64,000 bases of DNA from Heterodontus francisci (lineage: Eukaryota): assembly GCF_036365525.1 (NCBI RefSeq), contig NC_090419.1:930001-994000 (forward strand). Direction: 5' to 3'. The translations under genes and the position numbers were made by a program. This document shows positions 2-60,200 of the stretch, in pieces (the stretch's first letter is position 1; each line of letters starts with the position of its first letter). A model generated the notes under the pieces. The model did no database searches. It had not been told where the DNA came from and saw nothing but the letters and a program-made list of their open reading frames with translations.

Positions 2-625
2 CAGAAGCTCAAAAGTAAATATTGCAGCGTGAGAGCGGCGTCTGTGGTTCTGGGAACAGTGACCGTGCTGAGCTTTTTAAAGAATATTCCGTGGTATTTT
101 ATGATAACAGCTCGGTATTGGCTGGTGAACAGACCCTGGTTTTGTGAGGTCAAAATGGATGCTGTAGAATCTTGGACCTGGTTAACAATCGAGTTCCTCT
201 ATCACATTGTAACCCCAGGGGTCCCATTTGTGGTGATTCTGCTGCTCAATGCTTTTACCATCAGGCACATTGTTGTGAGCAGCAGAGGACGCAGGAGACT
301 GCGGGCTCCCAGCAGTGGGGGCAGTCACAGAGACCCAGAGATGGAAAGCCGAAGGAAATCTATAATTTTACTGTCAGTTATCTCGGCCAATTTCATCCTG
401 CTATGGGCAGCGTTTATGGTGAATTCCATTTGGAACCGAATGCGGTATATGGTGCATGTGTCTGTCATTCTACCTGGTTATCTGCTGGAAGCGGGCTTCA
501 TGCTGCAGCTCCTGAGTTGCTGCACAAATACTGCGATTTATGCCGTGACCCAAACCCAGTTCAGAGTGCAGCTGAAGAATTCGCTGAAATATCCCTTTAC
601 TTCAATTGTTAAATTCATTCAATGA
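2..625 (+). CDS. GPR139-like class A GPCR, copy A: 3' part of exon 2 (ICL2-TM4 to C-terminus); 5' part lies before the window
   Basis: Open frame from base 2 (QKLKSKYCSVRAASVVLG) to TGA 623-625; aligns along its length with copies B and D (PWFC, TPGVPF, RRKSIILL, FILLWA, GFMLQLLSCCTNTAIY, TQTQFR). Confidence 0.85.
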   Translation, partial: QKLKSKYCSVRAASVVLGTVTVLSFLKNIPWYFMITARYWLVNRPWFCEVKMDAVESWTWLTIEFLYHIVTPGVPFVVILLLNAFTIRHIVVSSRGRRRLRAPSSGGSHRDPEMESRRKSIILLSVISANFILLWAAFMVNSIWNRMRYMVHVSVILPGYLLEAGFMLQLLSCCTNTAIYAVTQTQFRVQLKNSLKYPFTSIVKFIQ

Positions 626-11470: not shown

Positions 11471-11579
11471 TCGAGAGGAAGAAATTAAACTTATCGTTTG
11501 CTGAAAAGGCAACCAGTAGGTGTCACAGCAGTGACAGATGCTCAAATACAGCATCACCCACTGAAACGTCACTGCTGCG

Positions 11580-27149: not shown

Positions 27150-27260
27150 CCGGATTGAAAGGGGTTAACTGCACCTCTTTGTTCAGTGACTAACTAATGT
27201 CAGTCCTCATGGACCGTAATTGTGTCACTGGAGGGTTTCTGATTTCTATTAATAAATGCC
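27150..27260 (+). promoter_or_regulatory. Conserved upstream block of copy B (putative promoter)
   Basis: TTGAAAGGGGTTAACT..TTTGTTCAGTGAC..TAATTGTGTCACTGG..TATTAATAAA shared with copies C and D. Confidence 0.55.
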
Positions 27261-27375
27261 TGCTTTCAATGACATAGGTTATAGTTGTGAGTTGGCAGTA
27301 ACAGTTATCAGCGGCTTCAGAGACGGGGAGAGGATAAATCACAAACTGGGGACAATAGATTGGAATATTACAACA

Positions 27376-27556
27376 ATGGATCAGGATCAGAGAACAATAG
27401 ACTGGAATGTTACAACAATGGAAAGGAGTTTCTCCTCGGAGCTTCAACAACTTTATACCCATTATCATCAAATGCAATTAGAATGGCGGATATATTACGC
27501 ACTTAAGATTATTCAATACATTTACTATCCCATCCTCGCTATTGTTGGCATCCCTG
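27376..27556 (+). CDS. GPR139-like GPCR copy B, exon 1 (N-terminus and start of TM1); start codon uncertain (in-frame ATGs at 27256, 27376, 27418)
   Basis: Encodes ...IIQYIYYPILAIVGIP; canonical phase-1 donor CCTG|GTAAGT (GT 27557-27558); homologous to exon 1 of copies C and D. Confidence 0.8.
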
Positions 27557-32709: not shown

Positions 32710-33919
32710 TCAAGTTCTGAAGCTGCCAGTGTCTAGATGCAGCAAAACGTGGCCAACATCCAGGCTGGGCTGAAAAGTGGCAAGTAACATTCGTGGCACA
32801 GAGGTGCCAGGGATGGGCAGTAATTGCTGGCCTCATCAGCAAAGGCCACATCCCATCAACAAAAAATAATCATGTCTTTCGCCAATTTTGACACGGTGCC
32901 ACCACTGGAATTACTGGGAGTCCACCATTTGTGCTGCGCACCCAGTACCTCAAGGACTCACTGAGTACCCCTAGTGACCTCGCCTCTGCTGTGGGGTTGC
33001 AGCAATACCCCTGCTCCCAGGACTGGTGTAGCACCAACAGTGCATCCCTCTCACTGGCTAGCCCCAGTGACCCCACCACACGGACATGTTGTCTGGGGCT
33101 CCAGTGATAGGCCTGGTCCCAAGCCTGGTGCAGTACTGGCAGGAGTCCCCACCCCTTGAATGACACGGGCAACACCACAACACTTACCTGTAGTGTAGGT
33201 ATCTAGTGATGGTCCAGGTAATAAGCCTCGTGGAGTACCATCAGCATTCTATGCTCTCTGACTGGCGCCTGTGACCGCACTACACTTTACTGGTGCCTGG
33301 ACCCCAGCGATTGCCATGGTCCAAGGCATCATGCACTACTGGCAGTTTCGTCGCTCCAGATTGTATTTCTGAGACGACTGACCGGCTGGCCCTCTGACTG
33401 TCTAACAGTTTTGGCTGGTGGGATCACTGTCCTTAAAGGCATGGGAACACAGCCCGGGCAGTTAATGGCCAGAATGCTGCTAAATTATCTCAGCAGGTAC
33501 TCCGAGCAGATGAGGCACTGTTCCCCTCACCGTTCGGTCTACGGTTGGTACACAGTCCCCCGCCACAACCCCGCCCCCACCTCCCCACCCCCAACGCCCG
33601 CTCAAATAAATTTAGCGTCCTGTCTCCAGCAGAAATCCCTGCCACAAGTGCAATATTTAAATCCGTCACTGAATGTGGGAACAAATGTACACATGTGTCT
33701 ACATGAACGACTTCAAGCTGTTTTTCTTACTTCCAAACTGATGTAAAATTTCCCTGATCATTTCCCTTGTTTACTGTAAACTTAATGACGATTGACATAA
33801 TTTGTTTAATTTATCTAACTTTTCATTTCCAGTCATTGCTTTGAAATAATTGAATTCTGTGTTACTTTTCACAGTTGAGGGAATCTCTTAGTAAGACCCA
33901 CATGTAGTTTTCTGTACAA

Positions 33920-34330: not shown

Positions 34331-35226
34331 TTAACTTGGTGACGATTGTGATCCTGTCTCGGGGAAAGTGTGGTCTCTCCAAATGTGTCACTCGCTACTT
34401 GGTGGCCATGGCAGCGGCAGATCTCCTGGTAGTGATCCTTGACCTGATATTGAGGCACATTCCCATTGTTTATTACGAACAGTTTCATTTCTTGCAGTAT
34501 TCCATCCCCACGTGTAATATCCATGCCGTCCTGCTGTTTGCAGCAACAGATTTTTCTGTCTGGTTCACCGTTACTTTCACATTTGATCGATTTGTCGCCA
34601 TTTGTTGCCAGAAGCTGAAAAGTAAATATTGCACCGAGAAAATGGCAGCTGTCGTTCTGGGGACTTTGACTGTGCTGAGCTGTTTAAAGAACATGTTCTG
34701 GTATTTTATGTTCACAGGACAGTATGTTCTGGTGAACACCCCTTGGTTTTGTTTGGTAACAATGGAGGTTCTATATTCTCGAGTCTGGTCAACAATCGAA
34801 TTCCTACATTACACTCTAACTCCGGGGTTCCCATTTTTGCTGATTCTGCTGCTTAACGTCCTCACTATCAAACACATTTTAGTGAGTAGCAGAAGTCGTC
34901 AGAGACTCCGGGCTCACAGCAGTGCGGGCAGTCGCAAAGACCAAGAAATGGAGAGCCGACGGAAATCCATCGTTTTGCTGTTAGTTATCTCAGCCAATTT
35001 CATACTGTTATGGGCAGTGTTTACGGTCGTTTCAATAGGGAACCGAATGTGGTATTTGGTGTCTCTATACCTACCAGAATTTTTACAGGATATAGGTTTC
35101 ATGTTGCAGCTCCTCAGCTGCTCCACCAACACTGCGGTTTATGCCATGACCCAGACTCAGTTCAGAAAGCAGTTGAAGAATGTGCTGAAATATCCCTTTA
35201 ATAGAATTATTAAATCCAATCAATGA
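34331..35226 (+). CDS. GPR139-like GPCR copy B, exon 2 (TM1-TM7); spliced protein ~358 aa from ATG 27376
   Basis: Acceptor TTCCTCACAG|TT (AG 34329-34330) joins in frame to give GIPVNLVTIVILSRGKCGL; motifs LVAMAAADL, FTFDRFVAIC, ECL2 Cys, NTAVY; no stops until TGA 35224-35226. Confidence 0.9.
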
Positions 35227-44695: not shown

Positions 44696-45008
44696 ACTAT
44701 TCTCTCAGTACAATATTTTCTCTTCAGTTTCTGGCAAGAAATGGCTACAAAACGATCAAAGGTGAAAGTGACAGTGGCCCAGACAGAACAGTCAGTAATG
44801 GCATAAAGCAAGACGGCGTGGATATTACACACACGGATGTAATTCATGAAATGAAAATGTTCCCGATAAACAATTGGAATGTGCCTTAATATCAGGTCGA
44901 GGAAAACAACCAGTAAATCCATCACTGCCATGGTCACCAGGTAGCGAGTGACACATTTGGAAAGACCACACTTTCCTCGATACAGGATCACAATCGTCAT
45001 CAAGTTAG
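44696..45008 (-). pseudogene. GPR139-like GPCR copy C, exon 2 fragment (TM1-TM3 only), cut off by a LINE 3' end
   Basis: Acceptor CCTCACAG|CT; NLMTIVILYRGKCGLSKCVTRYL...FTFDRFVAISCQKLKRKYCTE, then LINE sequence; I found no TM4-TM7 beyond the insertion. Confidence 0.8.
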
Positions 45009-50665: not shown

Positions 50666-50867
50666 TAGGGACACCGATGATAGCAAGGATGGGATAGTAA
50701 CTGTACTGAATCATTTTCAGTCCGAAATAGATCCGTCGATCTAATGATCGCCGATCATCATCTTCAGTAAATAGGTGAAACCAAACCAATATATTCCTGA
50801 CTACTGTTGTTCCATTCCAATCTATGGTTCTCAGCTTCTGATCCATCATTGTAACATTCCAATCCAT
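50666..50867 (-). pseudogene. GPR139-like GPCR copy C, exon 1 (intact frame)
   Basis: MDWNVTMMDQKLRTIDWNGTT...IQYSYYPILAIIGVP, followed by donor CCTA|GTAAG on the minus strand (GT = plus 50665-50664). Confidence 0.75.
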
Positions 50868-50959
50868 TGTTTTGAAATTCCAGTCTATCCTCTCCCTCTC
50901 TCTGGAGCCGCAATCCCCGTTAGTGCTAGAGGTGATGTTCACGCTGACACATTGAAATA

Positions 50960-51070
50960 AGTCCCTTACTAATAGAAGTGGGAAATCCTCCAGTGACACA
51001 ATGACTTGCCCGCAGAGATTGACATTAATTCCAGTCACTGAACAAACAGGTTTAGTTAACCCCTTTCAAT
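50960..51070 (-). promoter_or_regulatory. Conserved upstream block of copy C (putative promoter)
   Basis: Same motif order as upstream of copy B, on the minus strand. Confidence 0.5.
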
Positions 51071-55320: not shown

Positions 55321-56210
55321 TCATAGAACAATTTGAGAAAAGGGATATGTCAGCACATTCTTCAACTGCTCTCTGAACTGAGTCTGGGTCAGTGCATAAA
55401 TCGTTGTGTTTGTGCAGCAACTCAGGAGCTGCAGCATGAAACCCAATTGTATCAGAGAAACAGGTACTGATGGAGCCGCCGGCTCCAAATCCTGTATTCT
55501 TTGCCACATCGTATTCACCATTAACACAGCCCATAAGAGTATGAAATTGGCCGAGATAACGAGCAGCAAAATTATGGATTTCCTTCGATTCTCCAGCTCT
55601 GGGTCTCTGCGACACTCCCTACTGCTGTGGGCTCGGAGTCTCCTGCGACCTCTGCTGCTCACAAAAATGTGTCGGATGGTGAAAGCATTGAGCAGCAGAA
55701 TCACCACAAATGGGACACAAGGGGTTAGAATGTGATGGAGGAGCTCGATTGTTGCCCAGACATGAGAGAAATAAACATACATATTTGCATAACAAAACCA
55801 GGGTCTGTTCGCCTTCGAGTACCAACCTGTCAACATAAAATACCAGAAAATGTTCTTTAAGCAGCTCAGCACATTCACAGTTCCCAGAACCACAGCCGCC
55901 GTTTTCTCGGTGCAATATTTAATTTTCAGCTTCTGGCAGCAAATGGCCACAAATCGATCAAAGGTGAAGGTGACCGTAAACCAAACAGAGCAGTCTGTAG
56001 CTGCATGAAGCAGGACAGCGTGGATATTACACATGCGTACGGTCAACAGGAATTGAAACTGTCTTGGATAAACAATGGGAATGTGCCTCAATATAAGGTC
56101 GAGGATAATGACGAGTAGATCCACCGCTGCCATGGCCACTAAGTAGCGAGTGACACATTTGGAGAGACCGCACTTTCCCCGAGACAGGATCACAATTGTC
56201 ATCAAGTTAA
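55321..56210 (-). CDS. GPR139-like GPCR copy D, exon 2; spliced protein ~384 aa from ATG 59962
   Basis: Acceptor TTCCTCACAG|TT (plus 56212-56211); intact 7TM frame with DRF, PWFC, NTTIY; stop at 55321-55323. Confidence 0.9.
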
Positions 56211-58560: not shown

Positions 58561-59697
58561 CATATTTCATCCAGAGTTGGGTGAACACTTCCTCAGCCCT
58601 CCCTAATTGTATGCAGCAGTTCACAAACTCAACCTCCAGAAAACAATCTGCAGCACCTTAAATAACTTGGCATTAGCAGAGGGAATTCAATAGCTCCTCA
58701 CCTTTCAGGGCATTTAAGTGGTCATTGGATAGACATATGGATGAAAATGGAATAGTGTAGGACAGATGGTTTCACAGGTCGGCGCAACATCGAGGGCTGA
58801 AGGGCCTGTACTGCGCTGCAATGTTCTAATTCTAATTCGTATTAGCATGGATGCCTGGAACATGCAGAGACAGACCAAATTTCAAAGAAGTGCGTCAAGG
58901 TTGTTGGAGGACCCTGCCCAACACGGATAACCACACGGGATATGCCAGGTGTGGCTGGCAGCTTGTCCTGCACCATATTGTGTTTTATAATCTTTGCAGC
59001 ACCAGCAAAATAGATTCATCCTTCTGTGAAGCCCAGAATCATGGCCATGGAGAGATACAGATGAAAAGAAGTAATCTTTCAAAAGACATTTGCGATAAAT
59101 ACTGAAAAGGAACAACTCACAGGGATATGGGAAATGGACAGAGGTTTTAGGAGTAATAGGAGGGGCGAGGACATGGAGGGGTTCAAACACAAGGATGGGA
59201 ATAGGAAAATTGAGGTGCTGCTAGACCAGGAACCAATGCATTTCGCTGAGAACATGTGGATGGGTGCATGTTGTTTGGTGTGATTTAGTATTAGTGACTT
59301 GAATCTCCTGTGGTGTAAGAGAGGTTGTACCTGTGAATCTCACCAGTATAGTTTTGGAATAGGCGAATCTGGATTTAAGAAAAGCAATGATAAGGGTTTA
59401 TACAACGGATGGGCTGAGGTAGATTGCGATATTTTGCAGGTGGTAGGATTCAGTATTGATAGCGGCGATAATATGTGATTTGAAGTCAGCTGAGGATCAA
59501 AATGATTGCCCAGGTTGCAAACAGTTGCTCCAGCCTCAGATATTGTCAAGTGAGGGGGATTGAGTCTTTGGTTAGCATGTTGACTTTGTACCAGGAATCA
59601 AAGAAATGGCTTCCATTTCCTCAATATTTAAACAACAAAGATTTGTAATAGAATGAATCATGGTTTATAGATATAATAACTGGACTGAGAGACTTAC

Positions 59698-59962
59698 CAG
59701 GGACACCAATTATAGCAAGGATGGGATAGTAAATGTGTTGAATAATCACAAGTGCATATTTGATCCGGAATTCTAATGTTAGCCAATGATAATATGCAGA
59801 AAGAAAATAAAACAAATAGGTTATACTTCTGCTCATTGCTGCCGTATTCCAATCTTCCATTCTCAGATTCTGATCAACTGTTGTAACTTTCCAGACTTCT
59901 GATCCCAGATTCGGGTCCATTGTTGTCGCATTCCAGTCCATTGTTCCCAGATCCTGGCCCAT
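59698..59962 (-). CDS. GPR139-like GPCR copy D, exon 1; start uncertain (in-frame ATGs at 60082, 59962 and downstream)
   Basis: MGQDLGTMDWNATTM...IIQHIYYPILAIIGVP; donor CCTG|GTAAGT on the minus strand (GT = plus 59697-59696). Confidence 0.8.
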
Positions 59963-60089
59963 TGTCGCAATAATCCAAAATATTCTTCTCAGATTCTGAC
60001 CTATCCTCTCCCTCTCTCTGTAGCCACTGAACCCTGTTATCACCGGGGATGATGCTAACGTTGACACAATGGGATAACACATTGCAAAG

Positions 60090-60200
60090 AGTCCTTTATT
60101 AATGGAACAAGGAATCCCCCCAGTGACACAATTAGTGACAATGGAGACAGATATTAATTACAGTCACTGAACAAACAAGTTCAGTTAATCTCTTTCAACG
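60090..60200 (-). promoter_or_regulatory. Conserved upstream block of copy D (putative promoter)
   Basis: Same motif order as upstream of copy B, on the minus strand. Confidence 0.55.

Follow-up and report, generated by a model that had tools for sequence, protein, structure and literature searches.

The window analyzed here, a stretch of 64,000 nucleotides of contig NC_090419.1 of the horn shark Heterodontus francisci, carries copies A, B, C, and D of a G-protein coupled receptor (GPCR) gene. Copy D is a two-exon gene whose GT and AG splice sites preserve the reading frame. The features are listed below by position in the window.

2..625, plus strand: copy A, represented only by the end of exon 2, with exon 1 falling outside the window
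about 27153-27258, plus strand: copy B, upstream block of the same family as that of copy D
27334..27417, plus strand: copy B, array of unit 0 (ATA start) and one coding unit with a sequon
27376-27556, plus strand: copy B, coding part of exon 1
34331..35226, plus strand: copy B, exon 2, intact and in frame with exon 1 (358 aa)
44700..45008, minus strand: copy C, exon 2, interrupted after TM3 by unrelated, apparently LINE-like sequence
50867-50666, minus strand: copy C, coding part of exon 1, still intact
50805..50888, minus strand: copy C, array of four 21-bp half-units, the first preceding the ATG at 50867
about 50965-51070, minus strand: copy C, upstream block of the same family
55321..56210, minus strand: copy D, exon 2, the remaining 7TM region to the stop codon (384-aa protein)
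59962-59698, minus strand: copy D, coding part of exon 1, with the donor GT at 59697
59698..59836, minus strand: copy D, rest of exon 1 (hypervariable juxtamembrane segment, predicted helix, and start of TM1)
59837..59878, minus strand: copy D, unit 3, decayed (no start Met; sequon Thr replaced by Ala, W-N-T-A)
59879..59920, minus strand: copy D, unit 2, decayed (sequon Asn replaced by Lys, W-K-V-T)
59921..59962, minus strand: copy D, unit 1, with the first in-array ATG and the sole extracellular sequon, N11
59963..60004, minus strand: copy D, unit 0, with an ATA start and no sequon, probably 5' UTR
60005..60082, minus strand: copy D, 26-codon open stretch from the upstream in-frame ATG at 60082, probably 5' flank or 5' UTR
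60095..60199, minus strand: copy D, conserved non-coding block, likely the proximal promoter

Exon 2 of copy D matched the Pfam family 7tm_1 above the cut-off (E 1.2e-17). Seven confident helices and the residues R174, W315, and Y360, which represent the D/E-R-x, W6.48, and Y7.53 motifs, place the product among class A (rhodopsin-like) GPCRs. The horn-shark protein P0327, named 'probable G-protein coupled receptor 139', is identical to copy D over exon 1 and 296 of 296 exon-2 residues, and its annotated start is the ATG at 59962. Three records of the P0327 cluster, which has 20 close members, share the exact sequence of the copy D protein, pointing to a very recent segmental duplication or to assembly redundancy. 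Copy C is probably a pseudogene, since it is interrupted after TM3; the second half of its exon 2 was absent from the window. The interrupting sequence would be LINE-like judging by its resemblance to other repeat ORFs in the window, and the Pfam search gave no confirmation of a LINE for this element. At 33749-33802 (plus strand), approximately 550 bases before exon 2 of copy B, the exon-2 acceptor region recurs as a short, degenerate duplicate.

The repeat of copy D occupies 60004..59837 on the minus strand and comprises 168 bp, that is, four units of 42 bp or eight of 21 bp. The lag-42 identity was 0.667, compared with a codon-shuffle mean of 0.278 and a maximum of 0.437, and the lag-21 identity was 0.503; none of 10,000 codon shuffles scored as high for either lag. 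Tandem Repeats Finder reported a period of 42 at 59864-59965 (copy D) and a period of 21 at 27352-27419 (copy B), and the window outside the three exon-1 regions contained just two 25/42 matches to the unit, a chance level. With tandem in-frame units in the range of 10-60 bp recurring beyond chance, the array belongs to the coding minisatellites. The halves of the consensus unit (MDQNLRT and IDWNVTT) have 15 of 21 bases in common, indicating that the 14-residue unit consists of two copies of a 7-residue (21-bp) seed. Trp and the sequon are confined to the second half. In copies D, B, and C, the first unit opens with ATA, not ATG, and precedes the first in-array ATG (59962, 27376, and 50867, respectively); the coding units are therefore 3, 1, and 1.5 rather than 4, 2, and 2. 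The leading unit (unit 0) is probably 5' UTR in all three copies, and in copy D it differs from the consensus by eight non-synonymous changes and one synonymous change. The N11 sequon of copy D, of the N-x-S/T type, is located approximately 50 residues ahead of the predicted TM1 helix.

The peptide strings and coordinates reported for D, B, and C in the first-pass annotation were found in the window, in frame with the GPCR exon 1, and the extent given for the array of copy D was confirmed with a register off by one codon. The tandem units counted there (four in D, two in B) are present, only three and one of them being coding, and the 7-residue half-units described for copy C exist as well but amount to 1.5 coding units, not two. 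The claim that many units carry W-N-x-T holds for unit 1 of copy D and fails for units 2 and 3, which have lost the sequon and leave N11 as the sole extracellular one. The ACAATGG context, presented as a recurrent unit ending, surrounds three of the five in-frame ATGs of D and both of those in B but only one of three in C.

The block of about 100 bases upstream of the array is 76-82% identical among B, C, and D, compared with 36-54% farther upstream. It contains an inverted CAGTGAC/GTCACTG pair, 33-36 bases apart, followed by an AT-rich TATA-like box at the end; this pair had four matches in the window, three of them at genes B, C, and D, and none in 100 shuffles. The fourth match, at 11529-11574, adjoins no gene. 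The block is probably a promoter of the family. Indels between the TATA-like box and the array were of 13 and 1 bases, and those inside the array were multiples of three. An in-frame ATG followed by an open frame precedes unit 1 by exactly 120 bases in both D (60082) and B (27256); the two sites, shifted against each other by the 13-base indel, are apparently not homologous. Copy C has only a short upstream ORF, which is out of frame. A start at 60082 is less likely because these ATGs lie in or just past the AT-rich box and the leader, compared between D and B, has a pN of 0.49 and a pS of 0.38. At the first in-array ATG, positions -3 and +4 are A and G, respectively. Under the scanning model, a first ATG in strong context leaves little use for later ones, so the later in-array ATGs would be little used and are best read as by-products of the unit and as spare starts. 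Regulated alternative starts, as suggested in the first pass, are for the same reason not favored, the first ATG being already in strong context. The most likely translation start is the first in-array ATG, with unit 0 in the 5' UTR. Three of the 14 D-like models are annotated from the second Met. In contigs of three presumed-RNA runs (one sample) compared at 80% likeness, both exons were thinly covered by paralog-like pieces with no listed joint across the intron, and these contigs were uninformative on the start position. RNA structure in the 5' region was considered and rejected, as the region folded worse than 199 of 200 shuffles.

The distribution of the unit was determined by searching with exon 2, which returned 2307 proteins at E <=1e-20 among 4316 candidates. 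The best 120 of the 2307 were examined and included 84 from horn shark, 31 from sevengill shark, 4 from sawshark, and 1 from whale shark; the 84 horn-shark clusters among these best 120 matches comprise at least 236 member sequences (isoforms included). From 0 to 5 units were present in the 86 of 120 matches with a readable exon 1. Longer arrays were found in sawshark (8 units, full-length model), zebra shark (9.5 units, on a truncated model), and catshark (a 13-residue unit variant in up to 7 copies), and the unit also occurs in basking shark, white shark, smoothhound, and whale shark. Stingrays, devil rays, and skates have one worn unit at the same position, and their N-termini are mostly of the same 49-residue length. 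The worn unit at the same place in rays indicates that the unit is older than the shark-ray split, which took place roughly 250-300 million years ago. An array-only search, which scored 8000 candidates of 215-685 residues, gave 70 matches, of which 69 carry 7tm_1 and one is the query; the repeat as a mobile element or as a part of other protein families was accordingly rejected, with no case among these 70.

In the tree of 7TM bodies (137 rows), every unit-bearing row fell into one clade. This clade received an SH-aLRT value of 100 in a 61-row subset tree, which measures support and not discovery, since the groups were taken from the 137-row tree. The 23 rows outside the clade, including coelacanth, teleost, and salamander, have no unit, and their N-termini are about 10-20 residues long where the model start is credible. 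As the relatives are gene-model proteins, frameshifted arrays are invisible in these counts and the starts are the annotator's choice. The public models P0128, P0170, and P0207 are chimeric or truncated (one is an integrin fusion, and one ends in an out-of-frame repeat), and such models make the annotated counts and names for this receptor family unreliable.

Ten clusters of close paralogs were compared for unit number. P0067 and P0390 have two and five units on bodies that are 99.0% identical; catshark paralogs have 2, 3, 4, and 7 units, sawshark paralogs 3 and 8, and one sevengill shark cluster ranges from 1 to 5. Copy number thus differs between close relatives, as is typical of minisatellites, and the earlier designation of the repeat as a coding minisatellite was borne out: copy number varies among near-identical paralogs, and the unit is family-wide. 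The D-like subfamily is static, all 14 members with exon 1 carrying three units and one sequon (15 of the 20 members were listed, one of them without exon 1). The dominant unit variants are lineage-specific, including the 13-aa form, which would be the outcome of slippage and homogenization within lineages.

The strength of selection was estimated for the exons and for individual units. Exon 2 gave a dN/dS of 0.36 between B and D. Against the consensus, the seven full units of the window together gave 0.83, the first full unit past the ATG 0.35 (D), 0.45 (B), and 0.22 (C), unit 0 gave 2.5 and 1.7, and units 2 and 3 of copy D gave 0.96 and 1.3, respectively. The first full units past the ATG had fewer base differences than the other units (15/126 vs. 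36/168, p 0.04), and the synonymous/non-synonymous test on the window units was not significant (p 0.11); as the paralogs are related and not independent, these p values and the one below are optimistic. Of 100 horn-shark models, 74 had an anchored N-terminus, and 31 receptors were scored (Met start, exact unit register, two chance fits excluded). Among the single-unit receptors, 17 of 18 had an intact sequon, as did 24 of the 34 units found in the 13 multi-unit receptors (Fisher two-sided p 0.07, likewise optimistic), and 30 of the 31 receptors retained at least one. The horn-shark single units keep the sequon N in 18/18 and T in 17/18 cases, and Trp was kept in 13/18 single units and 29/34 units of multi-unit receptors. 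In the single units of other sharks (12 receptors, six species), Trp was kept in 12/12 and the sequon in 11/12 (N 11, T 11), with the remaining positions kept in 4 to 9 except for Asn4 and the start Met (11 each). Across the single-unit shark receptors, the sequon was present in 28 of 30. The 11 single units of rays retained Trp in 10, the unit sequon in 4, and any N-terminal sequon in 6. Asn4, located in the non-sequon half, was kept in 47/52 horn-shark units and 11/12 other-shark units, a retention on a par with that of the sequon Asn.

Glycosylation alone cannot explain the conserved core, given that rays keep the sequon in 4/11 and Trp in 10/11 units. A coding unit was absent from 10 of the 74 horn-shark N-termini, and nine of these ten also lacked a sequon, so the glycan is not essential to every receptor. 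Taken together, the horn-shark, other-shark, and ray counts indicate that the W-N-x-T core persists and that neither Trp nor the glycan is indispensable. A second source of glycan is rare: a sequon in ECL2 was found in just 3 of 78 clade members, and the array is thus usually the sole source of N-glycan (predicted sites). Thr at +2 and aromatic residues at -1/-2 are described as favoring sequon occupancy in the accessible parts of PMC12818257 and PMC6683751.

These data are probably best explained by a slippage-prone coding minisatellite that forms an unstructured N-terminal tail and is selected for one W-N-x-T glycosylation site, the extra copies being largely neutral. The receptors with the array in their exon 1 would be one subclade of a family of orphan class A GPCRs that expanded in elasmobranchs. 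Its 21-bp seed would have doubled to the 42-bp unit before the shark-ray split, with one half turning into the W-N-x-T site. Each unit opens on a Met codon, is a multiple of three bases long, and is placed at the very start of the reading frame, so that its gain or loss leaves the receptor intact. Slippage or unequal exchange may add and remove units, which would account for the observed spread in copy number; a start at the first in-array ATG would leave unit 0 in the 5' UTR, and the translated units would form a predicted unstructured extracellular tail ahead of the juxtamembrane helix. Selection would keep one W-N-x-T core, whose N-terminal N-glycan may serve folding and surface delivery, and Trp at -1 may aid occupancy or pack against the glycan or the receptor. 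Further copies would be mostly redundant, homogenized under active slippage and decaying once it has stopped, as in copy D. In the copy D protein, the site predicted to be occupied by a glycan is N11.

A different role for copy number, as a selected rheostat in which longer arrays would form a stalk or shield with several glycans and thereby set the ligand access, trafficking, or protease resistance of each paralog, is unlikely, though the least so of the alternatives. Clean arrays of 4-8 sequon-bearing units do occur on full-length models (P0074, P0082, and P0283), and all observed unit lengths (21, 39, and 42 bp) keep the frame. However, recent slippage explains the clean arrays equally well, and frame-keeping is partly an annotation filter. 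Copy D has lost the sequon in two of its three coding units, where dN/dS is near 1, and sequon loss is commoner in multi-unit than in single-unit receptors. The first-pass idea of tuned glycosylation therefore survives as one predicted site and not as a graded series: extra units lose the sequon (24/34 vs. 17/18 intact), and the D-like receptors (14/14) keep one.

A near-neutral array, i.e., a tolerated 5' slippage repeat with Mets as spare starts, kept alike between species by slow shark evolution and gene conversion, is slightly less probable again. The joint dN/dS of the seven window units, the horn-shark per-position conservation, which is mostly close to a neutral simulation, the D-like models starting at the second Met, and the existence of zero-unit models are in line with it. 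It is opposed by the single units of six shark species, in which W, N, and T stand out over the other positions (12, 11, and 11 of 12 vs. 4-9), by the near-invariant N and T in the horn-shark single units, and by the rays, which keep the unit in place, mostly with a constant N-terminal length. The lack of constraint on Trp, an impression obtained from horn shark alone, was likewise weakened by its retention in rays and other sharks, so that Trp may have some role.

The Trp-bearing unit could fold back onto the receptor and, as a tethered ligand or a lid, determine its basal activity, a proposal that depends largely on the GPR139 label. By sequence, human GPR139 is the nearest solved relative of copy D (E 2.6e-8, 36.6 bits). 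The structural alignment to GPR139 (7vug) showed 22% identity, and the fold match was no better than that to opioid or neurotensin receptors. In the accessible text of PMC5430874, GPR139 is activated by Trp, and F109, H187, W241, and N271 are important for this. Among the 78 clade members, W241 (W6.48) is kept in all, the F109 position (3.33) is Tyr in 58, Phe in 14, and His in 4, the H187 position (5.43) is His in just 17, and the N271 position is Phe in 70 and Asn in none. Orthology with GPR139 was ruled out by the low identity and the Trp/Phe pocket residues, and the name denotes a best hit only. The shark clade resembles human GPR139 and GPR142, both orphan class A receptors, in the 7TM fold, W6.48, and an aromatic residue at 3.33. 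Unlike GPR139, it has the N271 and R244 positions replaced and the H187 position variable, and whereas GPR139 is one gene, the shark family has more than 200 paralogs and a repeat-bearing N-terminus.

The nearest non-elasmobranch relatives found are GPR139-like paralogs of bony vertebrates (coelacanth, teleost, and salamander), which have 27-32% identity and a similar TM1 start but differ in their short N-termini (about 12-15 residues) without the unit. They are possibly the GPR210A/B subtypes of PMC6504862, which, in the part available, names GPR139-related subtypes in coelacanth and fishes and does not contain the word 'shark'. The GPR139 group is affiliated with the receptors related to the MIP/sex-peptide receptor, according to the accessible portion of PMC8514136. 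Three of the four outgroup proteins (P0239, P0241, P0253, and P0262) keep Arg at 6.51 like GPR139, and the shark clade lost it.

A tethered Trp ligand, drawn in the first-pass annotation by analogy to GPR139, is thus improbable, because the label is a best hit and, of the four residues on which activation of GPR139 by Trp depends, two are not kept. Trp is the best-kept residue in rays and in the single units of other sharks, the nearest solved relative by sequence is Trp-activated (PMC5430874, accessible text), and the aromatic residue at 3.33 and W6.48 are retained; however, besides the replaced pocket positions, 5 of the 18 horn-shark single units lack Trp, which is present there at the array-average rate (39/49), zero-unit receptors exist, an invariant ligand is poorly compatible with a hypervariable pocket, and the tail has no confident model. 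Tethered-ligand GPCRs include the protease-activated receptors and the adhesion GPCRs. The shark receptors are like them in having an N-terminal peptide ahead of TM1 and unlike them in that no GAIN or other ectodomain family was found by Pfam, there is no fixed cleavage motif, and the copies are variable and dispensable.

Structure prediction was performed using AlphaFold2 on P0001, which is 96% like copy D, with a 91-row alignment. Residues 1-44 had pLDDT values mostly below 50, followed by a helix at residues 47-56, with pLDDT of about 90 from residue 51 on, and seven confident helices. The ESM Atlas gave no usable match for the array, and the Pfam search of exon 1 found no family, long arrays yielding sub-threshold matches only. 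The variable parts of the family are the juxtamembrane segment, ECL1, ECL2, and the top of TM6-ECL3-TM7; the 35 juxtamembrane codons have a dN/dS of 0.85-1.2. The juxtamembrane helix is confident in the model and rich in aromatic residues despite this dN/dS. In the predicted structure, this helix would suit the role of a pocket lid better than the repeat does. A coiled-coil or beta-solenoid stalk that uses the 7-residue period as a heptad to oligomerize receptors is very improbable, given that the 4/3 spacing of hydrophobic residues and the weak matches of clean arrays to several coiled-coil Pfam families are set against scores that all fall below the curated cut-offs, AlphaFold2 pLDDT of 28-38 on an 8-unit array (the 8-unit receptor being of low confidence throughout), packing that a glycan every 14 residues beside the core would hinder, and the one or two units that most receptors have.

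Coding VNTRs are known from other surface proteins, such as the 13-aa repeat of GPIb-alpha, the decamers of PSGL-1, and the 48-bp repeat of DRD4. The shark array is like these in being an in-frame minisatellite that alters protein length with the frame intact. The known VNTRs, however, belong to single genes and encode O-glycosylated stalks or an intracellular loop, whereas the shark array lies at the extreme N-terminus of a GPCR, has a Met and an N-sequon per unit, and belongs to a multigene family. Many class A receptors have a single N-terminal glycan site. Olfactory receptors (ORs) carry one conserved N-terminal glycan site, and the shark family follows the same pattern. Tandem clusters, lineage bursts, pseudogenes, hypervariable pocket and loops, and a shared upstream block are further features common to the shark family and to the chemosensory GPCRs (OR, TAAR, and V1R), from which it differs in being a different sequence group with a two-exon coding region. 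As a large clustered family with a variable pocket, it has the makeup of a chemosensory repertoire and is, from its sequences, a candidate for an overlooked sensory repertoire. A wider proposal, in which hundreds of genes form an overlooked elasmobranch sensory or surveillance repertoire and the slippage-set copy number of W-N-x-T tunes receptor openness or activity, is doubtful, at about the level of the near-neutral array.

In the accessible parts of the respective papers, the numbers of ORs, TAARs, and V1Rs reported for sharks are low (PMC10116579), a paucity of GPCRs is noted for cartilaginous fishes (PMC8455134), and the main text of PMC11979771, as far as available, has no mention of GPR139. 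No account of the repeat or of the receptor expansion was found in the literature covered, to which subscription journals, which may describe the family, mostly do not belong. A minisatellite appears to have given one receptor clade a new, predicted glycosylated N-terminus that is older than the shark-ray split. The repeat provides a natural series, from no copy to about 9 on almost the same receptor body, in which effects of N-terminal length and glycan number could be studied, and it tags more than 200 horn-shark receptor models that are concealed by the name 'probable GPR139'. The repeat alone is a modest finding, and the receptor family is the larger lead: if its genes are expressed in sensory tissue, the view of cartilaginous fishes as poor in GPCRs and ORs would need revision.
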